A stretch of 44,454 nt of DNA, from the sequence record MK931441.1, one strand, 5' to 3'. This document shows positions 3,375-37,977 of the stretch, piece by piece. Within the stretch, counting starts at the first letter, position 1. The number at the start of each line of letters is the position of its first letter. Under the pieces are notes generated by a model. It was given only the letters and a program-made list of their open reading frames with translations, made no database searches and was not told where the DNA came from. Source of the DNA: Escherichia phage Snoke. The position numbers and the translations under genes were made by a program.

Positions 3375-5267
3375 ATGCTATTAACTTTAGCGCCACAGGG
3401 TTTATCTATGAGCTTACTTACATCTCTAATCAGCCACCAGATATGGCTGCAACGCACTGCATCCGGTGAGGTGAAAGACCTCGCGCCGTTCATTAAGGAG
3501 ATGCGGGACGAAATAAAACGGCAGGTGCTGTTATTCGGTGACGACGGGCGGAGCACTGCGCGACTGAATAAACTGTTACTCGACCTTGAAGAAGCGCTAA
3601 CCGGACTTACCGGCGATTGGCAAACAAAGCTGACAGAAGACCTTATGGAACTGGCGGCGTATGAGGCCGAGTGGAATGTAAAGACACTGACCACCAACGT
3701 AGATGCGGAATTTGTTACGCCTACTGCCGAACAGGTGTGGTCCGCTGCCGAGTTTCAACCCTTATCATTAAGCGACAAGCCTGTTGATTTCACTAAGCTG
3801 ATGTCGGGATGGGGTGAAACCGAAGTAGCACGTCTCGTAACCGGCGTTAAGATGGGCTTTGTTCAGGGTAAGACAACACGGCAGATTGTTAAGAATGTTG
3901 TTGGTGCTGGTGGTTTGGCGGACATTTCAGAACGTAACGCGGCTACTGTAATCCGCACCGCGCTGTCTCATGTATCCAACGAGGCCCGTAACGAGACGTA
4001 CCGCCAGAACGACGACATCATCGAGAAGTACGAGTGGGTGTCGACGCTGGACAGCCGTACCAGTACGATTTGTAGGGCCAGAGACGGAATGACGTGGGAA
4101 ATCGGTAAGGGGCCGATGCCCCCGGCCCATCCGAATTGTTTACTTGGGGACACTGTAGTATCTACCGGTAGTCCTGTTTCTAACATTTTTAAACGGGCGT
4201 ACAAAGGCACTGTAGTCTATGTCTCTACAAAGTCCGGTCGCACCTTGTCTATCACCCCAAACCACCAGGTATTGACTACCAGTGGTTGGGTTGCTTCCGG
4301 CCTTCTCAATGTAGGTGACAAGCTCGTGTGCGCTAAGGACTCTACTCTCTCTCTCAAGCATAAGGAACACAACGTTGTAGCCAAGTTCTCCGATTTGTTT
4401 AGTGCGGCTAATGTAGCGGTCAATCCTGCGGCGGTCCGTACAAGCCCAACCTCCACCGAAGACTTCCACGGCGACGGAACCGACGGCGAAGTCGAGATTG
4501 TACTTGTCGACCGCCTTTCCTGGGATAAAGTCAAGTCCGGACTGAATAAGCAAATCATTGACAAGGAACTCCCAGTGACTGCCGGCGTTGATGACTCCCT
4601 CCCTGGCTTTGGCTCTGCGAAGCAGTTCGGCATGGTCGGCCTTTCTCCCTCGGACAGCTTCGTGCGCGGCGGCAGAGAGAGCGAGGCGCTCCTCGGGAGT
4701 AGCTTTAGCCATTCTGATAAACATAGCGTCGCTACCTCCGCGAATGGTAACGCCGTTCTCTCTGAGAACGCGTATGACTGGACTACACGAAACGCCGATA
4801 ATCTTTCCGATTTCAACTGGTCCGATGCCGTTGGCGTAGAGCTTGATGATGTTGTCAATTTGGTCTTTAGTGAAGCTGATTTTTGCGGGCATGTTTATAA
4901 CCTCGAAAATGAACAGAACTGGTATCTTGCGAATGGAATTATAGCACATAACTGTCGCTCAACAACCGCGCCTGTAATCAGTTCGGAGTTCGACTTCCTC
5001 GATAAAGGCGCAAAACGCGCGGCTAAGGGCGCGGACGGCGGTATGCAGGTAAGCGCGGACACCACCTATTACGAGTTCCTGAAACAACAACCGGCATGGT
5101 TTCAGGACCAGGCGCTTGGTTCTGTTCGCGGTAAGATTTTCCGCAACAGCGGTATATCACCAGAGGAGTTTCGCGTAATATCTGTAGATGGTTTCGGGAA
5201 TCCGCTCACGCTTAAGCAGATGGCGGAACTCGATAAACGTGTTGCTGATTATCTGAAAGGGGATTAA
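3375..5267 (+). CDS. head morphogenesis protein precursor (Mu F / SPP1 gp7-like) containing an intein
   Basis: Extein carries the minor-head-protein signature DSRTSTICRARDG...PPAHPN-C-R; 630-aa precursor = about 358-aa extein plus 272-aa intein. Confidence 0.8.
   Translation: MLLTLAPQGLSMSLLTSLISHQIWLQRTASGEVKDLAPFIKEMRDEIKRQVLLFGDDGRSTARLNKLLLDLEEALTGLTGDWQTKLTEDLMELAAYEAEWNVKTLTTNVDAEFVTPTAEQVWSAAEFQPLSLSDKPVDFTKLMSGWGETEVARLVTGVKMGFVQGKTTRQIVKNVVGAGGLADISERNAATVIRTALSHVSNEARNETYRQNDDIIEKYEWVSTLDSRTSTICRARDGMTWEIGKGPMPPAHPNCLLGDTVVSTGSPVSNIFKRAYKGTVVYVSTKSGRTLSITPNHQVLTTSGWVASGLLNVGDKLVCAKDSTLSLKHKEHNVVAKFSDLFSAANVAVNPAAVRTSPTSTEDFHGDGTDGEVEIVLVDRLSWDKVKSGLNKQIIDKELPVTAGVDDSLPGFGSAKQFGMVGLSPSDSFVRGGRESEALLGSSFSHSDKHSVATSANGNAVLSENAYDWTTRNADNLSDFNWSDAVGVELDDVVNLVFSEADFCGHVYNLENEQNWYLANGIIAHNCRSTTAPVISSEFDFLDKGAKRAAKGADGGMQVSADTTYYEFLKQQPAWFQDQALGSVRGKIFRNSGISPEEFRVISVDGFGNPLTLKQMAELDKRVADYLKGD
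4137..4952 (+). mobile_element. intein (Hint domain), 272 aa
   Basis: Begins Cys1 CLLGDTVV (block A), SITPNHQVLT (block B, TxxH), ends VYNLENEQNWYLANGIIAHN (blocks F/G, terminal HN) followed by Cys+1 at 4953; splits conserved extein motif HPN|CR. Confidence 0.8.
4140..4892 (-). CDS. HTH + Vsr/DUF559-like PD-(D/E)XK endonuclease, candidate homing endonuclease encoded antisense to the intein
   Basis: Minus-strand ORF coextensive with the intein; ATG at 4892 preceded by GAGG with 8-nt spacer; N-terminal HTH (ISFTKDQIDNIIKLYANGIGPVEIGKIIGVSCSPVIRVLRENG) and nuclease signature SHWEFLVNDLL...YNLDFAVGSVAVEVFGGGW...RRRIDRYISRTKQIGELGYNVVF; ORF track gives upstream ATG at 4949 without SD. Confidence 0.6.
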   Translation of the reverse strand: MPAKISFTKDQIDNIIKLYANGIGPVEIGKIIGVSCSPVIRVLRENGVTIRGGSDAMFIRMAKATPEERLALSAAAHEAVRGRKADHAELLRRAKAREGVINAGSHWEFLVNDLLIQSGLDFIPGKAVDKYNLDFAVGSVAVEVFGGGWACTDRRRIDRYISRTKQIGELGYNVVFLMLERESRVLSAHELVTYIEKAGSNPTTGSQYLVVWGDRQGATGLCRDIDYSAFVRPFKNVRNRTTGRYYSVPK

Positions 5268-5728
5268 TGATGGGCTTTTTTAAAGTAACTGATGTGCCGT
5301 CGCGTCGCGTAGTCCAGTACGCCCGTGTATCCGGTTCTGGTGAGAACGTGGTGTCTATTGGGGACGAAAGTGTACTAGGTACACCGGTAGACGAGATGCC
5401 GTATGCGGACAAGACCGGTATCGCACTCTCTGCTGCTGGTATGCTTTATGAGATTCCGTATCGGGCAGATGCTGGTGATGTGTATTTCTCTGTGCAACCG
5501 AAAGACACCGAGCTGGTCGACGGTAGCGCCACCATCACCGTCGAAGTTAAGGCGGGTAAAGCGCCGTATGTACTGACCTGGTACAAAGACGGGAAGGAAG
5601 TGGTGAACGTCCCGGAAGAGGCTCTGTCTCTGACTGTTAATGCGGCTGGTGAATACTTCGTTAAAGTTACTGATGCCGATGGTGCGGAGGCCGTAAGCAA
5701 AGCGGCGAAGGTCTCTAAACCAGGATGA
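5267..5728 (+). CDS. Ig-like domain protein (virion-associated, function unknown)
   Basis: C-terminal beta-rich repeat with YVLTWYKDGKEV motif typical of bacterial Ig-like domains; start overlaps stop of morphogenesis gene. Confidence 0.5.
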   Translation: MMGFFKVTDVPSRRVVQYARVSGSGENVVSIGDESVLGTPVDEMPYADKTGIALSAAGMLYEIPYRADAGDVYFSVQPKDTELVDGSATITVEVKAGKAPYVLTWYKDGKEVVNVPEEALSLTVNAAGEYFVKVTDADGAEAVSKAAKVSKPG

Positions 5729-5730
5729 TA

Positions 5731-5760
5731 AAAGGCCCCATAATGGGGCCTTAGTTTTAT
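5731..5760. terminator. bidirectional intrinsic terminator
   Basis: AGGCCCCA-TAA-TGGGGCCT hairpin flanked by A-run upstream and T-run downstream, between convergent genes. Confidence 0.7.
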
Positions 5761-6278
5761 TTAAATCGCGCGGGCATTAACACCATAAAGGCCGTGTTTG
5801 AAAATTGTATTTTGCATCCTCTGGTTTGGTCCTGGAAATCGAAACGAGCAATTTCATTTTTGTATGCCTTAGAAATCTTGTACGCGTCTGCCAAATAGCG
5901 CAGAGTGAACCCTATACTACCGACAACACCCGGTGTGATGTGCGCCACGCGTCTCCAGTCAGGAAAGTTTCCTTCTACAACATCTACCGGAAGTGTACAT
6001 ATAAGCGCACGATTATCGTCATAGAAAGATACACTGCCGTTGTCGTGGTCTACCTCTGCGTAGTTAAATTTAGAAGGCTCTCTCCCTTTAATGTCGACGA
6101 GAACCCCTTTCTCAACGTTCGTCTTCACATTGTCGCAGAACAATCTATGACCGTCCGTAGACACTATCAATCCTTCAGGGTCTATGTAAAAAGCGTTCAA
6201 ATAGTAGCGAACATCATTTTTAGCCCTGCATATTTTCGCCCCTACATACGCAGGGAAAGTAATTACTGTAGTAACCAT
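5757..6278 (-). CDS. truncated DnaN-like protein (beta sliding clamp homolog, domain II plus partial domain III)
   Basis: 173 aa; DVRYYLNAF...STDGHRLFC, EGNFPDWRRV, IGFTLRYLADA and C-terminal FMVLMPARFK match, in order and spacing, E. coli DnaN motifs DVRYYLNG...ATDGHRLAVC, DGRFPDYRRV, IGFNVSYVLDVLNA and YVVMPMRL; strong SD AGGAGG 6 nt before ATG. Confidence 0.6.
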   Translation of the reverse strand: MVTTVITFPAYVGAKICRAKNDVRYYLNAFYIDPEGLIVSTDGHRLFCDNVKTNVEKGVLVDIKGREPSKFNYAEVDHDNGSVSFYDDNRALICTLPVDVVEGNFPDWRRVAHITPGVVGSIGFTLRYLADAYKISKAYKNEIARFDFQDQTRGCKIQFSNTAFMVLMPARFK

Positions 6279-6305
6279 TTTATGCCTCCTGTTTAAGTTA
6301 ACTGA

Positions 6306-6334
6306 ATAGTACCCTATTATATTGGTGCGCGCAA
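6306..6334 (-). promoter_or_regulatory. sigma70-type promoter (class II: TTGCGC-17-TACTAT) for DnaN-like gene
   Basis: Minus-strand TTGCGC, 17-bp spacer gcaccaatataataggg, TACTAT; spacer conserved with promoters at 15400, 37978, 38911. Confidence 0.55.
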
Positions 6335-6400
6335 ACTATTTGTTTACGTATTCCAGATATTCCACTCAATTGTAAACGTTGGAATAAACTATTCGAATAG

Positions 6401-6429
6401 TTGACTTTTCACTGAAAATATGCTAAGCT
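6401..6429 (+). promoter_or_regulatory. sigma70-type extended -10 promoter (class III: TTGACT-17-TGnTAAGCT), copy A
   Basis: TTGACT, 17-bp spacer ending TGC, TAAGCT; promoter plus about 45 nt of downstream leader nearly identical to 37681-37757. Confidence 0.55.
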
Positions 6430-6609
6430 CCACCTGAGCTTGTGAAGTATGAACAAGCGACCGCGGCGCGGGCAGGTAACGGAGCTGGACGTAAGTCCTG
6501 AGTGTAGTTACGCTGACGCGTTCGGAAGGGCCATACTCTATTGCTTGTGCAAAAAGTAACTGGTTTACTGAGATTACGCCGTTTCTATGTTTAAATGATA
6601 AGGACTAGC

Positions 6610-6637
6610 GCCCCGCTTTAAGGCGGGGCTTTACTTA
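6610..6637 (+). terminator. hairpin plus T-tract (attenuator/terminator-like) just upstream of spanin genes
   Basis: GCCCCGC-TTTAAG-GCGGGGC followed by TTTACTTA. Confidence 0.4.
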
Positions 6638-6653
6638 TCGAGAAAGGGGAAAC

Positions 6654-7046
6654 ATGAATCTTAAAGCAACTGTCGTAGCCAGAGCATGTTTCGTCGTCCT
6701 AGCCCTAGCCTACGCACACGGCATCTATCAATACCGCAGCGGCTGGGGTGAAGGCCGTGCTAATCTCGTTTCGCAGCAACAGCAGAAAGCACAGGCTGAG
6801 CTGACGAAGAAAACACAACGGCAGCAGCAGGATGAATCAAAGGCCGCCGCCGCTGACAACGAAGGCAAGACGAAATCAGAGGTGCTTACCCGTGAAGTCG
6901 TTAAGTACATTAAAACGCCTGGCCGCAGCGTGTGCACTTTCGACGATGCTCGCGTCCTGCTCAAGTCCCACGCCGTTGCCAACGCCAATTCCATCCCCGG
7001 ATACGACGATGATGCAGCCGCCGTGCAAACTGGCACCGCCAAGTAG
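6654..7046 (+). CDS. Rz-like i-spanin (putative)
   Basis: N-terminal transmembrane segment (VVARACFVVLALAYAHGIY), Q/K/E-rich helical region, C-terminal Cys; overlapped in +1 frame by lipoprotein ORF. Confidence 0.5.
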   Translation: MNLKATVVARACFVVLALAYAHGIYQYRSGWGEGRANLVSQQQQKAQAELTKKTQRQQQDESKAAAADNEGKTKSEVLTREVVKYIKTPGRSVCTFDDARVLLKSHAVANANSIPGYDDDAAAVQTGTAK

Positions 7047-28368: not shown

Positions 28369-28500
28369 TCATTCCGGCACCCACAGATAAATTGCGATTA
28401 ACATACCCAATACGGCAACCATCATGCCGTACTGTCCCTCGTGACAGTAACCACCGGCGGCGAATCCAGCCAGTACCGCGATAATCAGTTTACTTAGCAT
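28369..28500 (-). CDS. small hydrophobic protein (hypothetical)
   Basis: 43-aa ORF below track threshold, predicted transmembrane, downstream of polymerase gene. Confidence 0.25.
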   Translation of the reverse strand: MLSKLIIAVLAGFAAGGYCHEGQYGMMVAVLGMLIAIYLWVPE

Positions 28501-30661
28501 AGCGCTTCATCTCCGCACCTTCTGCAACCAAAGGGAATCCCTCCGCCCAGTCAGGCAATTCACACATCAACCTCTCAAGCTCTGCAACATTGTATTCAGG
28601 CGAATCTGGCGTCTCGCAGATAATCTCATCGTGTACATGAAGCACAATCGGGTAGCCGTTTGCTTCAACTTTAAGTAGCGCGTTAGCCAGCAAATCACGG
28701 CACAACGCCTGCGTACAGTTTTCCACCAGTTTGCCTGAGTACGTGTACTGGAATCCCCACTGACGCGTTAACTGGTTCTCCCCCTGGTACTTGATGCGCA
28801 CGTTAGTAGAAACTTTTCCGTCTTCGTCTGTCTCTTTCGACACGCTTAAACCGACGCCAGGGTAGGACATAACACGTCCCGACGGCAACGTCATGCGCAA
28901 CCACCAACCCGCTACCTTGTTGCCGTTGTTGTCTGTTTCTACGTTGCGGGAAAACTTAACTCCGCGCGGGCCAGCGGAGAACTCTTTCCCCGGATTACGT
29001 ATAGCTGCCATAGCTGCGTCTTCAATATCGCGCCAGAATTGTACTATCGCCGGGTTGGCTTCCCGGTACATTCGTTTCAGAGCGTCACATGTACGCCAGA
29101 CTTTCTTATCAAGGATATATGATGGTCGGTCATCCTTTTCACCCGGACGCGGAGGACGTTTAGCTTCCTGAATACGTGCCCACTCGTAACCACGTGCCGT
29201 AGCGGCCCATATATGGTCAGGGAAAGTTCCAGCTAAAATGTTAGTCATGTCGTTCAAATCAAGCCCTAAGTTTTTAGCAAACGTGACGAAAGCGCCCACA
29301 CCCCCCGCGTAGCCCAGTCCGAGAACCATTGCTTTGGCTATTTGTCTTTGGTCTTTTGTTACGTCGTCATAACTAACATTGAACACGGTTGATGCGAGTT
29401 TCTTGTACACATCAACTCCGTTTACAAATACTTCTATTAAATCGTCTTCACCCGCCAGCCAGGCCAGCCCACGACCTTCAACGTTAGAGTAATCGGCAAC
29501 AACAAACTTGTGTCCGGCTTCCGGGATGATGCAGCTACGCACCGTCGATGCCGTCAGCTTGGCGACATCAAAGCGGCGATGTGCACGTCCTTTCAGTAGC
29601 GCAGAAATACCTTTATCCAGTTCATCGTCATGATAGTACCCGCGGGCCAGGTTCTGTGGCTGGAAGCCTTTGCCAGCGAATCGTAGCGTACGCTTAGCCC
29701 CGCCGTACTGGATACAACCACGGCGGCGGTCGTCTGACGAGCGGCCTAGCAACAGCGGGTTATATTTCGTTGACGCAGTTGACGCGGCCCCGAGGCGCAT
29801 TTCGATAATCATGCGTGCATCGTCGGGTAAATCCTCGTCAGCCAGCAGGTCGTTAAGAGTAGACTTCTGTGCGTTATGGATGCGATGCGCAGGGGCCAGT
29901 TCACGCAGAATCGGCAGGAAGTCTTTACCGGTAAGCGAGCCGCCGTATTTGCGCTGGGCTTCTTCCTGCAACTGCGCCTTGTGCTTCTCTACGGCTTCAA
30001 TCGCTGCTTCCGCCAGCGCAACATCAACCTTGAACCCACGGTCATTGATTAACTGGTCCAGTTCCAGTACACGGTCTTCGAACTCAGAGTTACCCCACCG
30101 CGGCAGCTTATGGAAGACTTCACGCATCGCGGTGATGTCGCTCACGGCGTACTTGATGAACAGCGCCCACTCGTCCAGGTGCGTTTCGGCGGTGTAGCGG
30201 CGGATTTTGTAGTTCTTCGGCGTAGGTTTAGAGAAACGCTGAATCAGCGCCTTGCCGCGTTTATCTTTCGCGTTGTCTGCCGATACACCCAGCACTTCGC
30301 ACAACGCATCAAGTGAACCCGGCAGCGCGTGGCGAAACGCCCAAATCATCGTATCAATGGTGTTGCTTACAGGAATATCAAAACCCCAGCAGTGTTTCAT
30401 GATGAGCCTGTCGAACATTGAGCCGTTGTGCCACACCATCTTGATACGGCTGTTCGGCTTAACCAGGCGGCGTAAGGCGCGGTGCAAATCCCCCGGCATG
30501 TCGCTGCCGTCGGTGCAATCCCATACCTGCACAGGCTCGTCATCAAAAGCATAGGTACAGATTAGCACTTCGGTAGTTGGATGTTCGGCGTAAGAGTAAG
30601 AACCGACTTTCTTTAAATCGGCCTCGGAGAATGTTTCAAAGTCCAGGTATAAGTAGCTCAT
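28490..30661 (-). CDS. DNA polymerase, family A (Pol I-like) with 3'-5' exonuclease domain
   Basis: Exo motif LDFETFS; polymerase motif A DYSNVEGR, motif B RQIAKAMVLGLGYAGG, motif C HVHDEI; start taken at ATG with SD AAGGA (track start 30715). Confidence 0.9.
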   Translation of the reverse strand: MSYLYLDFETFSEADLKKVGSYSYAEHPTTEVLICTYAFDDEPVQVWDCTDGSDMPGDLHRALRRLVKPNSRIKMVWHNGSMFDRLIMKHCWGFDIPVSNTIDTMIWAFRHALPGSLDALCEVLGVSADNAKDKRGKALIQRFSKPTPKNYKIRRYTAETHLDEWALFIKYAVSDITAMREVFHKLPRWGNSEFEDRVLELDQLINDRGFKVDVALAEAAIEAVEKHKAQLQEEAQRKYGGSLTGKDFLPILRELAPAHRIHNAQKSTLNDLLADEDLPDDARMIIEMRLGAASTASTKYNPLLLGRSSDDRRRGCIQYGGAKRTLRFAGKGFQPQNLARGYYHDDELDKGISALLKGRAHRRFDVAKLTASTVRSCIIPEAGHKFVVADYSNVEGRGLAWLAGEDDLIEVFVNGVDVYKKLASTVFNVSYDDVTKDQRQIAKAMVLGLGYAGGVGAFVTFAKNLGLDLNDMTNILAGTFPDHIWAATARGYEWARIQEAKRPPRPGEKDDRPSYILDKKVWRTCDALKRMYREANPAIVQFWRDIEDAAMAAIRNPGKEFSAGPRGVKFSRNVETDNNGNKVAGWWLRMTLPSGRVMSYPGVGLSVSKETDEDGKVSTNVRIKYQGENQLTRQWGFQYTYSGKLVENCTQALCRDLLANALLKVEANGYPIVLHVHDEIICETPDSPEYNVAELERLMCELPDWAEGFPLVAEGAEMKRYAK

Positions 30662-30828
30662 TTCTTTTTCCTTAAATCCAGTGCCTTCGTTTCGCTTAAT
30701 CTTATTTTCATACAATCACAGCAAATCCACACATGCCTGTACCCGGCCCGGTACTCATCTGCATACCACGGAAGCGGTTTCATATAGCGATAAACGTGCT
30801 TACAGAAAAACATTATTTTCGACCCTTA

Positions 30829-30872: not shown

Positions 30873-31499
30873 TTAGCGGCGACGACGTTCGCGGCGCGGT
30901 GCTTCATCTTCTTCGTCGTCTTCCAGGTCAGTAACACTTGCAGAGACTTTAGAACCGCCAAACGCTTTACCTTCGCCGGCGTATTTAATCGCCAGCAGGT
31001 TAACGCCGAGGACTTTATATTTCTGGCTGAACCAGATTTCAACGCTTACGTTAGCGACGCAGCCGCTGTAAACCTGTTCACCTTCAATCTGTTCGCCTTC
31101 GACGTTGAAGTCAGGCTCTACCTGAGTTTCACCTTTTTTAGAGGTTACAATCAGAGGTTGTTTCTGTGCCTTCGCTTTGAAGTAGAAGCCTTCCGGGAAG
31201 TCTTCAAAAGGATTATCACGCTCGGCGATGTCCTTAATAGCACATTTATCCATGTGCTTGCCTTCGCCGTAGTTTGACTTCATCCACTTCTCGGCAGCAG
31301 CGGCCCCCAGTGCTTCCTCTACAACCGCATAAACAGTGTCGTACATTTCGTCGATTTGCGCATGGTCAGACGGCAGAATGATAGTCGCGCTGTACTGACC
31401 TTTAGTGATAGAGCCATCGTCGTTTTCACGGTCTTTTTCGCGTTCGAATACGTTAACCCATGCAGTGTTTACTTTACGCAGATTTAATTTCAGTCCCAT
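30873..31499 (-). CDS. DUF2815-like protein, possible ssDNA-binding protein
   Basis: 208 aa with acidic C-terminal tail DLEDDEEDEA; paired with Cas4-like nuclease gene as in known phage replication modules. Confidence 0.45.
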   Translation of the reverse strand: MGLKLNLRKVNTAWVNVFEREKDRENDDGSITKGQYSATIILPSDHAQIDEMYDTVYAVVEEALGAAAAEKWMKSNYGEGKHMDKCAIKDIAERDNPFEDFPEGFYFKAKAQKQPLIVTSKKGETQVEPDFNVEGEQIEGEQVYSGCVANVSVEIWFSQKYKVLGVNLLAIKYAGEGKAFGGSKVSASVTDLEDDEEDEAPRRERRRR

Positions 31500-31590: not shown

Positions 31591-32835
31591 TTATTCTAAA
31601 TCTTCTTCACTAACCTGATTCCACTCAGGCCGTTTGTCGTCTGCCGTTGCTACACATGGTGCACCTGGCTTACGTGTGATGAAGTCTTTCAGTTCTTCTT
31701 CCGGTATAACTTTAACCGCTTCGGTCGGCGTCATGAGAACGACTTTGTTCAGCATAGTGCCGTATTTCTCAGCCACCTTATCAGCGTCTTTCCACGCACG
31801 ATTACCCGGACGACCCTCGACCAGCTTGTAACCCGGCACTTTCTTGCCAGAATGCAACGCGGCAGCCATAGCTTTCTCAACCTTGTCGATGTGCTGGCGC
31901 AACAACGGCAGCTTCTCATACTCGGCGACGAGTTGCTCGGGTGTCAGTTCCAGCGCAAAGTCGTCCTCCAGTTCTTCCACCAGTACAGAATTAACAGTCT
32001 TCGTCCTGGCGACGCACTGTTCCGAGAACCGGCACCACTGGCAACCATCGACTGACGGCTTAAAGTCGGACGCTTTCAGGTTCTTCTTACCACGGAAGTA
32101 CGCATCGAGTGCTAACAGCGCGCGTTTATGTGCGAACTTAGCGAACAGTTCCAGGCCTTCAACCGAGATATCCCACTCCGACGCACCGCCAGCATACGGC
32201 TGGAAGATGACCAGACGAACAGTTGTTATGTTATATCGTCTCTTTAGTCGGCGATAAACACCGAGAGCGTAAAGCATAAGCTGCTTGTTTTCTTTCGCTT
32301 CGACACGATGCCGTCCGGTTTTCAGGTCACCAATAATGAGCATGTGCTCGTCGGTGTTCGCCAGTTCCTGCACGGCAACAAGGTCAGCGGTCCCGAACGT
32401 CTCAACGCCTTCATATCCCGGATGCAGCACCTCTGTAAGATTGACGCGCATTTCCAGCTTGGCGTAAGTCGCTACGTCGATAATCGGTTTGCAGTAGTCG
32501 GTGTACTTACGCACCTGCTCAATCATGTCCGCCGTAATAAGTACCGCACCTTTCATAGGGCTGATTAACGCCTTAATCTGGCCTTTGCCTTCATCCAGCA
32601 CGTAAGCCCCGACTTCACGCTCTAACGGCAACGCAGTGCCTTTGATGTACTGGTTAAGGTGAATCTCAGCTATGGTGTGCATGGCTGTGCCCAATACGGC
32701 GGCTTTACCTGACGTATTTGGAATGTCTTTTTCACATGCCAGTGATGCACTGCACGTCAGCCACTTCTTAGCGCCTGACGGCGACAACAGGGCGTGCACA
32801 TCGTTATTGCCGCCGCGTTCTTTTAGTTTCATCAT
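31591..32835 (-). CDS. PD-(D/E)XK exonuclease, Cas4/RecB-like (DUF2800-like)
   Basis: D-x-K motif IGDLKTG, Cys cluster CQWCRFSEQC at C-terminus plus N-terminal Cys. Confidence 0.75.
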   Translation of the reverse strand: MMKLKERGGNNDVHALLSPSGAKKWLTCSASLACEKDIPNTSGKAAVLGTAMHTIAEIHLNQYIKGTALPLEREVGAYVLDEGKGQIKALISPMKGAVLITADMIEQVRKYTDYCKPIIDVATYAKLEMRVNLTEVLHPGYEGVETFGTADLVAVQELANTDEHMLIIGDLKTGRHRVEAKENKQLMLYALGVYRRLKRRYNITTVRLVIFQPYAGGASEWDISVEGLELFAKFAHKRALLALDAYFRGKKNLKASDFKPSVDGCQWCRFSEQCVARTKTVNSVLVEELEDDFALELTPEQLVAEYEKLPLLRQHIDKVEKAMAAALHSGKKVPGYKLVEGRPGNRAWKDADKVAEKYGTMLNKVVLMTPTEAVKVIPEEELKDFITRKPGAPCVATADDKRPEWNQVSEEDLE

Positions 32836-34434: not shown

Positions 34435-34731
34435 CTATTCCAAATTCTTAATCGTGTGTTGCACGTTCAGGTACTGAATCCACGCAAAAAGCCATACGCT
34501 TAACGGAAAACTAACCACAGCTGCCGTTCTGAAAACAATGTGGACGGTACACGCTACAATTTCCTTTACCGTCATATCCAGAACGTGGCGCAATTCTGCA
34601 ACTTCCTCTAACGCTAGCTTGCAAGCAGGCCACCATTGGTGTGCTACACAAGAAACACATGTCAGGTACGACGGGCGGTATCCAGCCCTCACTGCTTTAA
34701 ACGGGTTATCTATAAAATCGTAGATATTCAT
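34435..34731 (-). CDS. hypothetical protein
   Basis: ORF from track; Cys-rich N-terminus, hydrophobic C-terminus. Confidence 0.3.
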   Translation of the reverse strand: MNIYDFIDNPFKAVRAGYRPSYLTCVSCVAHQWWPACKLALEEVAELRHVLDMTVKEIVACTVHIVFRTAAVVSFPLSVWLFAWIQYLNVQHTIKNLE

Positions 34732-36989
34732 TCCAAATCCTCTTCTGTCACTATCAGCATCTCATTCGGCTCGTATATTGTCTTCGGAATCTTGTTATCG
34801 TTTATGCCCCACGGCAGCCGATATTGCTTAGGTATAGGCCTGTTGTTATTATCCAGCCCAGAGACGATAACCCCAGCCTCGTGCATCTCCTCCAGTTTCT
34901 TTCGAAGGTCGTTATTAGCGTTAATCGGTACACCATAACTATCTTCTTTCGCCGCTTTGACGATAGCGGACATAGAAAACCCTCGCTTGTCGTCGCCCTG
35001 CTCCTGCAATTTACCTAATGCGTAAATAACCGTAGCTTCTTTGGTACCCAGTTTCTCGAACTGGCCTACCTTTTCTTTAACGGCTTCCTTCTGTTCGTCG
35101 GTCATACCTTCTACTTTCTTCACGAAGACAGAGAAGGCGTTAAAGTTAACAAAGACATCGATGTGCGGATTTCCCGCGTCAAAATCTCGCACATCGTCAC
35201 TGCTATACCCTTCCGGAAGCACCATGAAGTTGTGAGTTGGTTCTTTCTTTTCCGGTGGCTCCGCTATCTGAATCTTCTGTATTACGAATCCTCTGGCTTT
35301 CTGCCGTTCTCCGTTTCGGTTCTTTATGTGATACAGGTTTATCTCTAAGTTATTGTCGTTGTCTGGTTTATGCAGGAACATCCCGTTATCGATGGAGTTG
35401 TGAAAGTCGCTCCCACCCTTCGGCATCATGCCGTTTTCAGACGGTACGGTTTCGTCGATGTTTTTAGTCGGGTGCACCATAGCGCCTACCGCAGCGTTAA
35501 GCGTCGACGCTATTTCGTTAAGCGCCTGCGCCGCTTCTTTCATCGACCTGTTGTCGTTCTCGTCGAAGCCTGGTATGCAAGTTTGTAGGGTATCAAACGT
35601 AACCTTTACAATTTTCTCTTCACCGGCGACACGGCGCATCATTCTTACCGCCTGGCGGCGCCATGCTTCATCAAGTAAATTACACCCATCGGCAACACAA
35701 TCGATAATGTGCAAGCGGTCCAGGCTATCCCCGAGGGCAATCTGCAAAGACTTTTTATGTCGCCCGAACGACTGTGCGCCTTCACCGGCGAAAATGAACG
35801 CATGTCCTTCTGCAACCTCTGCCCCACCGAACGCATATCTTTTTTCGGCGGCAATAGCGGCGTCAATCGCCATACTAAATGTCGACTTACCAGTGTGGGA
35901 CTTTGCGCAAATGTAAAACGATTCGTTAGTCTGCATAAGGCCGTCTACGACGGAGTAAGCAGGTTCTTTTTCAACTTCCGGCTCGTCTTCGAGGTCTTCC
36001 AGAGTGCAAGTTACAGGCTCTTCATTCTCTGTGCGGTGTAATTCCTCAATCTCTTCGTCCGGTAAATCAGGCAGAGCCGCACGAATGCTGTTAATACTGA
36101 TAGGTTGCTTGTCTACGTTAAGCTCGTCCGGAAGACCGCACATACGCAGAGCCAAATGTTGTCGGCGGTTAAGCTCGGTGCAAGCGCCGTTGTTTGTGTG
36201 CTGGCACACGAAGCGCACTTCTTTACCATCAAGCATAATGCTGGTAGAGCCTTTGCCGGTGTGCAGGTGTTCGTTAGGGCAAGGCACTTCGTACCCGCGA
36301 CCGGAAGATAAAGCGTCAAGGCCAAGCTCCGCTTCGCAGAAATGCGCTATATCCGCGTTAAGCCCATGCTCATCGGCAGCAAGGGTCTTAGCTTCACGTT
36401 TACGCAACCCCATTTCTTCGGCTTTCTTGATGTACCGCTCGGCACGGATAACACGCCCTTCTGTAACCGTTATCTTCGACTCTTTATGCGGCAGGTAGAT
36501 AAGGCGGTTGCCATCTTCTGTGCAGTGGTCACGCAGCGCTTCGTCTATCTCTAACTCTGCACAAATGGCGCGTTGTACCATCCACGCATCGTTAGAGTTA
36601 AACGGCGTGCGTGCAGGTACAAGAACGCGAAAGGCGTAATCCCCGTTTTTACACGCGTGCTGATGCGACGCCGTTGTGTGCAGAATGTTGAAGAACGGCG
36701 CGTTCTTGAATTTGCGCGTCAGGTCGCGGTACTGAGCGCGGTTGAGATGGTCAAAGTCGAACTTAACCACACTGTCTTCCAGAATCGCGTTCTTACGGCG
36801 ACCGCCAACCGGCGCAATAGCTTTCTGCTTAATCTTGGCCGCGTCGTACTCTTCCTTAGTCCATGACGGGTCTACGGACAGACGCTTCGATGTATCGCAG
36901 ACATACTCTACAAACTGCTCCAGTGGCATTTCACGGGCTACCGGGTTTTTATCGAATGTGTTACGCAGCGTTGCAAAAACAATATTCAT
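34728..36989 (-). CDS. DNA primase / helicase (putative)
   Basis: Central P-loop AKSHTGKST; N-terminal region with Cys/His cluster CPNEHLHTGKGSTS...CQHTNNGAC; position in replication module. Confidence 0.6.
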   Translation of the reverse strand: MNIVFATLRNTFDKNPVAREMPLEQFVEYVCDTSKRLSVDPSWTKEEYDAAKIKQKAIAPVGGRRKNAILEDSVVKFDFDHLNRAQYRDLTRKFKNAPFFNILHTTASHQHACKNGDYAFRVLVPARTPFNSNDAWMVQRAICAELEIDEALRDHCTEDGNRLIYLPHKESKITVTEGRVIRAERYIKKAEEMGLRKREAKTLAADEHGLNADIAHFCEAELGLDALSSGRGYEVPCPNEHLHTGKGSTSIMLDGKEVRFVCQHTNNGACTELNRRQHLALRMCGLPDELNVDKQPISINSIRAALPDLPDEEIEELHRTENEEPVTCTLEDLEDEPEVEKEPAYSVVDGLMQTNESFYICAKSHTGKSTFSMAIDAAIAAEKRYAFGGAEVAEGHAFIFAGEGAQSFGRHKKSLQIALGDSLDRLHIIDCVADGCNLLDEAWRRQAVRMMRRVAGEEKIVKVTFDTLQTCIPGFDENDNRSMKEAAQALNEIASTLNAAVGAMVHPTKNIDETVPSENGMMPKGGSDFHNSIDNGMFLHKPDNDNNLEINLYHIKNRNGERQKARGFVIQKIQIAEPPEKKEPTHNFMVLPEGYSSDDVRDFDAGNPHIDVFVNFNAFSVFVKKVEGMTDEQKEAVKEKVGQFEKLGTKEATVIYALGKLQEQGDDKRGFSMSAIVKAAKEDSYGVPINANNDLRKKLEEMHEAGVIVSGLDNNNRPIPKQYRLPWGINDNKIPKTIYEPNEMLIVTEEDLE

Positions 36990-37181
36990 TTCTTTTTCTC
37001 CGCACGTTCTAAGGCTTCCAGCATACGGCGCATTGCGCGTTCATCTTTACCGGTGCGAAGAAGTCTGCGCCGTGTTTCTGGCGGCGTAGCTGTGGAACTA
37101 TTAATTTCGCCATTGTATAATCCTTGTGCTTACTTTGATGATTTGTGCTTCGGCCCCGACGTCCTAGCGTTGGGGTTTCTT

Positions 37182-37680: not shown

Positions 37681-37709
37681 TTGACTTTTACTAAGAAATA
37701 TGGTAAGCT
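37681..37709 (+). promoter_or_regulatory. sigma70-type extended -10 promoter (class III), copy B
   Basis: TTGACT-17-TGgTAAGCT; promoter and following leader to about 37757 nearly identical to 6401-6476. Confidence 0.55.
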
Positions 37710-37977
37710 CAGCCTGAGCTTGTGAAGTATGAACAAGCGACCGCGGCGCGCGGCAGGCGAAACGAGCACGTGTAGCGTGTGGAGTGAGGCTCGCTAGCGC
37801 GTTTGGGAGGCCCCAAGTCTATTGTAATTCCAGCCTAAGTAGCTAAGTTACTGATTTGCCGTAGGTTAGAACCGCCAGCTCACTCACTCACTCTTGGTGC
37901 CTTCGGCACCACGTTCGTTTCGTTTCGCTCGCTACCCCCTTAAACGAAAGAATCACAACGGCAACGTAACTAATCTC

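Follow-up and report, generated by a model that had tools for sequence, protein, structure and literature searches.

The presence of a small gene with similarity to the bacterial sliding clamp in Escherichia phage Snoke, a virulent Kagunavirus (Guernseyvirinae), raises the question of what function a fragment of a replication ring could serve for a phage. The analyzed window is the whole stretch of 44,454 nt deposited as sequence record MK931441.1. The gene, here termed mini-clamp, is a lone minus-strand gene with the capsid-decoration gene on one side and the spanin genes on the other. The following local features were found:

5757-6278, minus strand: mini-clamp coding sequence, an intact open reading frame of 173 aa with an ATG start
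6285-6290, minus strand: Shine-Dalgarno sequence AGGAGG, 6 nt 5' of the ATG, read from the sequence
6316-6321, minus strand: -10 hexamer TATAAT, a perfect match and candidate mini-clamp promoter, read from the sequence
5732-5752, detected on the plus strand: G+C-rich hairpin directly after the mini-clamp stop codon

The first-pass annotation had described a minus-strand frame of 173 aa with a strong Shine-Dalgarno sequence, and both the ATG frame and the AGGAGG were recovered. The matching site is the annotated ribosome binding site (RBS) in Escherichia phage Schulenburg. A promoter of its own had also been assigned to the gene, and the perfect TATAAT at 6321-6316 agrees with this assignment, but the best -35 element is a poor TAAACA at a spacer of 19 nt and the site was not called in a consensus promoter scan. 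A separate mini-clamp promoter is therefore only plausible. The region 5' of the gene is kept in phage K1H, where it lies ahead of another small gene, and an Rfam search of the intergenic region upstream of the mini-clamp yielded zero matches. The hairpin at 5732-5752 separates the convergent decoration-protein and mini-clamp genes; as terminators are annotated on both strands at its position in the Schulenburg record, it is likely a bidirectional terminator.

A promoter-plus-leader element is repeated in the window at 6402-6475 and 37682-37757, both on the plus strand. Its order is TTGACT, a 17-nt spacer, TGnTAAGCT and a conserved leader of about 45 nt, which contains the hairpin GCTTGT-GAAGTATGA-ACAAGC plus GACCGCGGCGCGGGCAGG. 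After the copy at 6402-6475 comes a stretch of ~200 nt with structure (fold z=-2.6), which extends up to a terminator at 6610-6629 just before the spanin gene. The element is unmatched in Rfam and may be a nut/put-like antitermination element.

The relationship to the beta clamp could be established by sequence and structure searches. A PDB search with the single mini-clamp sequence found the E. coli beta clamp at E=3.3e-5, with residues 16-116 of the query aligned to DnaN 144-252 and a weak second piece pairing residues 117-171 with DnaN 312-365. An alignment of 43 mini-clamp relatives (A1), used as a family profile, found E. coli DnaN in the PDB at E=7.4e-29, and the C-terminal unit of this profile scored 17.3 bits on DnaN 312-366. 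The Pfam domain DNA_pol3_beta_2 was matched by 36 of the 43 relatives. The similarity to DnaN domain models that had been anticipated thus holds for the family, but the Snoke protein alone stays under the curated cut-offs of Pfam (17.4 versus 27 bits) and TIGR00663 (20.8 versus 137.65 bits). All five DnaN motifs named in the first-pass annotation are present and follow the DnaN order: DVRYYLN (DnaN 150-156), TDGHRL (172-177), FPDWRRV (241-247), IGFxxxYLxD (317-326) and MPAR (362-365). Structure prediction of the protein on its own, which had been suggested as a check, resulted in a confident clamp fold (AlphaFold2 with alignment A1; pLDDT 95.4, pTM 0.91). Fold searches with the mini-clamp returned clamps only, and the E. 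coli clamp is its nearest solved relative. The mini-clamp is a DnaN homologue, with a similarity far above chance.

The alignments define which parts of the clamp are retained. Domain II of DnaN (E. coli about 129-252) is represented by residues 1-116 of the mini-clamp, and residues 117-173 match the C-terminal half of domain III (E. coli 312-366), a beta-alpha-beta-beta-beta unit; this division had been proposed beforehand and the PDB alignments agree with it. The whole of domain I, already noted as missing, and DnaN 253-311 are absent, and the protein measures 173 aa versus 366 for DnaN. A three-domain protomer of the DnaN type was not found, as the mini-clamp consists of domain II and half of domain III and scores under the family thresholds. 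The head-to-tail interface of DnaN was not found either, as nothing in the mini-clamp matches domain I or DnaN 253-311.

The DnaN ring is lined by two helices per domain. The mini-clamp model contains two long helices only (residues 8-17 and 126-138), and a loop of nine residues (64-72) takes the place of the second helix in domain II. This lost helix is the structural counterpart of the domain-I helix that bears K74 and I78; a helix-like insertion is still present at the loop site in more distant relatives. The dimer interface of DnaN is formed by I78, F106, K74, R96 and R103 on the domain I side and by I272, L273, E298, E300 and E304 on the domain III side (PMC11139829), and all of these residues fall in parts missing from the mini-clamp. 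Since both interface faces were lost with domain I and DnaN 253-311, the mini-clamp is predicted to be a protein that cannot close a DnaN-type ring, in line with what had been concluded at first sight.

The loss of both faces also bears on the function proposed in the first-pass annotation, in which the fragment would cap the opened host beta clamp via domain III and act as a poison that prevents ring closure. The mini-clamp is homologous to host DnaN and the exposed edge of its domain II sheet could in principle pair with another clamp domain. However, the domain III side of the interface (I272, L273, E298, E300 and E304) sits exactly in the missing DnaN 253-311 and domain I is absent, which leaves capping unsupported. 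In addition, the model has a loop where domain II would carry the counterpart of the domain-I interface helix, and no interface-like residues are conserved in the family, the highly conserved columns all being located at or beside the binding pocket described below. Capping of host beta was rejected as the leading idea because both dimer-interface faces are missing, and such heterodimerization is considered highly improbable.

A ring could also be assembled from several copies. Each clamp domain is an internal duplication, and two C-terminal half-domains might pair into a pseudo-domain III, so that an arc or a closed ring would result from dimers or tetramers (4 x 1.5 = 6 domains). The third unit of the family profile aligns to DnaN 253-283 and also to DnaN 312-366, two times 173 residues roughly equal one DnaN protomer, and a lone half-domain should expose the surface that is normally packed on the other half of domain III. 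Yet the monomer is already modeled with high confidence, one channel-lining helix is missing in the Snoke subfamily, the phage encodes no clamp loader, and the gene is dispensable. A multi-subunit clamp is viewed as improbable.

What the mini-clamp does retain is the docking site of the clamp. The pocket for clamp-binding motifs (CBMs) consists of subsites I and II with 18 residues listed in a review (PMC11139829), all of which fall within the retained segments. Identity between the mini-clamp and E. coli DnaN was 15/18 in the pocket and 34/138 at the other aligned positions (Fisher p=2e-6). Conservation in alignment A1 averaged 0.81 for pocket columns and 0.44 for the others (p=4e-7). A wider set of 148 relatives, composed of representatives clustered at 50% identity and re-aligned, gave means of 0.81 for the pocket and 0.39 elsewhere (p=4e-8). 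Any column of this set that is at least 85% conserved is either a pocket residue or at most three residues away from one; in E. coli numbering these columns are R152, Y153, Y154, L155, G157, T172, D173, G174, H175, R176, D238, G239, P242, R246, Y323, M362, P363 and R365. In the 148 relatives, conservation was 91-100% for twelve of the 18 pocket residues and 16-73% for the remaining six. The pocket geometry is retained in the model, and the presence of a CBM pocket is thus predicted by both sequence and model.

Judged from these alignments, the pocket is the sole feature under strong selection across the family. In DnaN proteins generally, no parts are better conserved than the pocket motifs, and these are located at the domain II/III junction; for both reasons their conservation could partly be structural. 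It is also partly what makes the homology detectable at all. The dN/dS value of 0.12 for the Snoke mini-clamp and the copy in phage 26 verified that the gene is maintained by purifying selection. The best-supported statement, as far as alignments and model can carry it, is that the mini-clamp is a module of non-ring type that presents the CBM pocket as its conserved functional surface. Variant pockets were detected in SaI_NFG_5577 (L005 3992-4501), which has TDGAIL in place of TDGHRL, and in TheodorHerzl (L006 4001-4519), which has TNGHRL and PDWSRF; these changes may reflect an altered ligand specificity or a lost pocket function.

A profile search of 1.84 billion representatives was employed to obtain an overview of the family. 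The best 150 matches were all short (141-265 aa, E<=3e-30); 149 of these 150 matched in a single stretch and most spanned nearly the full profile, which argues for a large distinct family and not for an isolated truncation. The same short fold is found in BFVD for phages of Serratia, Pantoea, Burkholderia, Rhodococcus, Gordonia, Bacillus and Xanthomonas. The Snoke protein has a net charge of about +2 and a pI of 8.3, compared with a median pI of 7.7 in the family. A DNA-level search of 5,426 E. coli genomes, including chromosomes and prophages, did not reveal a match to the mini-clamp gene. Plasmid homologues were found to be uninformative, as the examined case is a full-length DnaN paralogue of 425 aa and not a mini form. 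This paralogue (L019 8482-9759) is located on the conjugative MOBH plasmid pECTOK-001_1 of E. coli and adjoins DinG, Dam methylase and RdgC; about a dozen other matches on large plasmids of Klebsiella, Citrobacter and Serratia, annotated as DNA polymerase III subunit beta, are seemingly similar.

Many family members extend beyond the clamp fold. A C-terminal tail of 10-60 aa past the MPxR motif is present in 100 of the 148 representatives; the Snoke protein has no tail. Half of the tails (50/100) carry P-x-[W/F/Y] at 7-11 residues past the Arg, and 44 of the 100 end in -AA, compared with 3.3 expected from composition, an ending that resembles an ssrA/ClpX-type degron. Such tails may occupy the pocket as pseudo-ligands or serve as signals for turnover.

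The annotation of the family is not uniform. The gene is named 'DNA polymerase III sliding clamp' in Schulenburg and 'beta clamp domain-containing protein', 'DNA polymerase III beta subunit' or 'RusA-like Holliday junction resolvase' in other records, and the mini-clamp is a clear member of PHROG 3007, which bears this last name (E=2e-36). A Pfam search with the Snoke protein did not match RusA (PF05866) at E<=10, and the 43 relatives matched DnaN domains only, without RusA, at E<=0.01. The RusA label of PHROG 3007, which many records follow, is therefore regarded as a propagating annotation error, and the identity as a RusA-like resolvase was rejected given zero RusA signal and a clamp fold.

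The genomic setting of the gene was analyzed in comparison with related phages. Snoke and Schulenburg are about 96-99% identical over large aligned blocks and 98.6% identical across 1.3 kb around the mini-clamp, and their mini-clamp proteins are 100% identical. One difference between the two genomes concerns the head-morphogenesis gene (Mu-F/SPP1-gp7-like; 3375-5267, plus strand), which in Snoke has 630 codons and contains an intein (Pfam Intein_splicing, aa 263-526). The Schulenburg counterpart is a head-morphogenesis gene of 358 aa followed by a free-standing HNH endonuclease gene, and Snoke 4131-5253 has no counterpart in Schulenburg. An antisense frame of 269 codons (4140-4949, minus strand) lies fully within the intein, gives a weak HTH_7 match and may be an endonuclease or DNA-binding gene.

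The replication set of Snoke comprises the following genes, and the mini-clamp gene is placed outside this module:

31591-32835: DUF2800/PD-(D/E)XK exonuclease
30873-31499: Enc34/gp2.5-type single-strand binding protein (SSB)
28490-30715: family-A polymerase (PolA)
34731-37040: AAA_25 primase-helicase

Neither a clamp loader nor a Pol III-type polymerase is present among the Snoke genes. The comparison with K1H further delineated the unit that is exchanged at the mini-clamp locus:

5759-6284, no strand assigned: swappable cassette, coding sequence plus RBS spacer, from blastn of Snoke against K1H

Snoke 5200-5758 and 6285-6900 are homologous to K1H by blastn and the interval between them is replaced. 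The K1H slot holds 109 unrelated bp (L012 1859-1967) with a hydrophobic frame of roughly 33 codons. The corresponding slot of the Jerseyvirus S100 (L013 942-1670) holds an adenine methyltransferase on the same strand as the mini-clamp. A second slot, flanked by the portal and head-morphogenesis genes, contains the mini-clamp in Kagunavirus phage 26 (L014). The mini-clamp gene together with both flanks was detected at a coverage of at least 80% in only 15 of 180 related records at megablast level. Cargo is exchanged at the site that separates the decoration gene from the spanin genes, and the flanks of this site are conserved; the mini-clamp is a mobile accessory cassette that is dispensable within the genus.

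Other phage lineages place the gene in different contexts. It is again a lone opposite-strand gene in Dhillonvirus, there within the head module, and the last gene of a small operon with a ParB/KorB-like gene in Cedarrivervirus and Roufvirus. Edwardsiella phage PEi21 carries the mini-clamp directly after a triad of exonuclease, gp2.5-like SSB and DNA polymerase, and PolA lies 1-8 kb from the mini-clamp in each of the three metagenome lineages whose contigs measure 25-44 kb (3/3). Phage Sf11 carries a mini-clamp relative and no DNA polymerase, which argues against a simple, universal poison of host replication.

A gene of the DUF932 family (PF06067; about 320 aa) was found directly upstream of the mini-clamp, or one small gene off, in three independent metagenomic lineages. 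Its positions on the metagenomic phage contigs are:

L007/L008, 6697-7677: DUF932 gene
L016, 7678-8649: DUF932 gene
L018, 3860-4825: DUF932 gene

A ParB/KorB-like gene fills the corresponding operon in Sf11 and pYD38-A (L002, L003). The DUF932 literature gives no function for the domain.

These contexts are central to the main rival explanation. By analogy with the herpesvirus proteins UL42 and UL44, the mini-clamp could be an adaptor of phage replication or recombination, whose pocket would recruit either a host enzyme with a CBM (Pol I, ligase or Pol III) or a phage protein to the phage DNA or replisome. The location near PolA or other replication genes in PEi21 and several metagenome contigs fits a role at the replisome; Snoke has the PEi21 triad elsewhere in its genome, the PolA genes of all three metagenome lineages with 25-44 kb contigs lie within 1-8 kb, and phage RcTitan lists PolA together with a 'beta clamp'. 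Relatives are moreover retained by phages that depend on the host polymerase, such as Sf11. Nevertheless, the gene is dispensable and traded for unrelated cargo within Kagunavirus and Jerseyvirus, and four genera place it outside the replication module, on the opposite strand and among structural genes. A CBM-like motif was not found at the termini of the phage PolA, SSB and helicases, and the net charge of about +2 and the family median pI of 7.7 do not provide a strongly basic DNA-binding signature. An adaptor function was kept as the main rival on account of the relatives in polymerase-less phages and the polymerase neighbors in some lineages, and is judged rather unlikely. The stricter version, an essential processivity factor of PolA, was rejected as unlikely because the gene is swapped for unrelated cargo in the genus and has relatives in PolA-less phages.

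The reading preferred here, with a probability of roughly 40%, is that the mini-clamp is a soluble non-ring binder or decoy for clamp-binding proteins. Domain II and the packing half of domain III would build the hydrophobic cleft for CBMs (QLxLF-like peptides), and the mini-clamp, expressed from its own transcription unit, would offer CBMs a receptor in solution. It would probably bind host proteins that usually attach to the clamp, and not DNA; candidate clients include the clamp-loader delta subunit, Pol III alpha and epsilon, Hda, MutS/MutL, translesion polymerases, Pol I, ligase and RecB. The bound clients would be titrated away from host clamps, and the phage would replicate with its own clamp-independent machinery, consisting of the family-A polymerase, the gp2.5/Enc34-type SSB and the primase-helicase. 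Competition for clamp-binding proteins had been the second option in the first-pass annotation and is supported by sequence through the conserved pocket; the redirection or shut-off of host replication put forward there would be a possible outcome. We infer three elements of this proposal, namely the binding of CBM peptides, the identity of the host clients and the preference for inhibition over recruitment.

For Snoke, the decoy is favored because the gene is dispensable, mobile and located outside the replisome module, and because the phage needs no host clamp and no plausible phage client was found. A scan of all six frames of Snoke with a CBM regular expression revealed nothing convincing in the replication proteins, its matches being confined to structural proteins or non-coding frames, and a CBM-like motif was not found at the termini of the Snoke PolA, SSB and helicases. 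Several points speak against a decoy: a general Pol III sink would harm polymerase-less phages such as Sf11, the gene lies near PolA and replication genes in PEi21 and several metagenome contigs, and a few family members have altered pocket residues.

Two host proteins stand out among the candidate targets of such a decoy. The five-residue domain III loop contacted by delta, which we take to be about residues 274-278, probably falls in the segment that is missing from the mini-clamp. Delta binds a monomeric beta variant about 50-fold tighter than the dimer (PMC11139829), and this preference over the ring makes it an attractive candidate. RecB carries a functional CBM, QVEMEF, that binds the canonical clamp pocket (PMC13254535), which identifies it as a further candidate.

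The RecB motif also leads to a variant explanation, in which the client of the pocket would be a CBM-using host nuclease or defense protein, RecB for example, and the mini-clamp an anti-defense decoy. The S100 slot carries an adenine methyltransferase, which is classical anti-restriction cargo, and in the early regions of other lineages the gene lies beside ParB/KorB-like or DUF932 genes and many small open reading frames. On the other side, the mini-clamp does not match PADLOC models at E<=1, and Sf11 additionally encodes a Gam-like protein. To our knowledge, there is no anti-defense protein with a clamp fold. A dedicated anti-defense function, for which the arguments are purely contextual, appears improbable.

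Several known systems can be compared with the mini-clamp. DnaN itself (E. coli P0A988; PF00712, PF02767, PF02768; TIGR00663) differs in that the mini-clamp is an accessory phage gene. A parallel in architecture is E. coli beta*, which Skaliter, Paz-Elizur and Livneh reportedly described in 1996 as a UV-induced 26-kDa product of an internal dnaN start. This protein is said to consist of domains II and III, to oligomerize in a clamp-like manner and to support processivity. Like the mini-clamp, beta* begins near the start of domain II, has no domain I and keeps the pocket, but it retains the whole of domain III, half of which is lacking in the mini-clamp. The herpesvirus factors UL42, UL44, PF-8 and BMRF1 each comprise two complete domains with a basic face for DNA binding and act as indispensable partners of the viral polymerases. 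In contrast, the mini-clamp has 1.5 domains, a near-neutral charge and is dispensable; its gene adjoins a polymerase gene in some lineages only. The monomeric beta variant I272A/L273A (PMC11139829) resembles the mini-clamp as a non-ring form that presents the pocket, but is an engineered full-length protein.

Phage proteins that act on the host clamp system provide a functional comparison. The N4 protein gp8 targets the delta subunit of the clamp loader, as reportedly observed by Yano and Rothman-Denes in 2011. The Twort protein Gp168 is found in complex with the S. aureus beta clamp (PDB 7EVP). In both cases phages that are independent of the host clamp interfere with the clamp system, and the goal proposed for the mini-clamp is the same. 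Unlike the mini-clamp, Gp168 and N4 gp8 are no clamp homologues and bind the clamp or its loader without imitating the docking site.

The homology of the family to DnaN is already contained in GenBank annotation, and a genome paper (PMC9825357) describes the family gene simply as a processivity clamp. Literature searches for truncated or mimic phage clamps returned annotation-level mentions only, with no account of the truncation, the lost interface halves, the pocket-only conservation or a functional test. The pocket-only architecture and its meaning thus appear to be undescribed. In hundreds of phage genomes such genes are named either DNA polymerase III beta subunit/sliding clamp or RusA-like resolvase. 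The former suggests a processivity factor that forms a ring, for which the architecture offers no support, and the latter is incorrect.

More than a dozen bacterial proteins of replication, repair and recombination are organized through the pocket of the beta clamp as their hub, and this pocket is also a target for antibiotics. A natural, stable protein of 173 residues that retains the pocket alone would be a ready-made minimal scaffold to study or screen pocket ligands, and would be direct evidence that phages manipulate the clamp network by imitation of its hub and not by blockage. As a tentative and somewhat doubtful generalization, mini-clamps may form a large unrecognized class of phage docking-site decoys that soak up the CBMs of host replication, repair or nuclease proteins, for example delta, Hda, MutL or RecB. 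If true, the tool-belt of the host clamp would be uncoupled in infected cells, which would represent a previously undescribed strategy of takeover or anti-defense.
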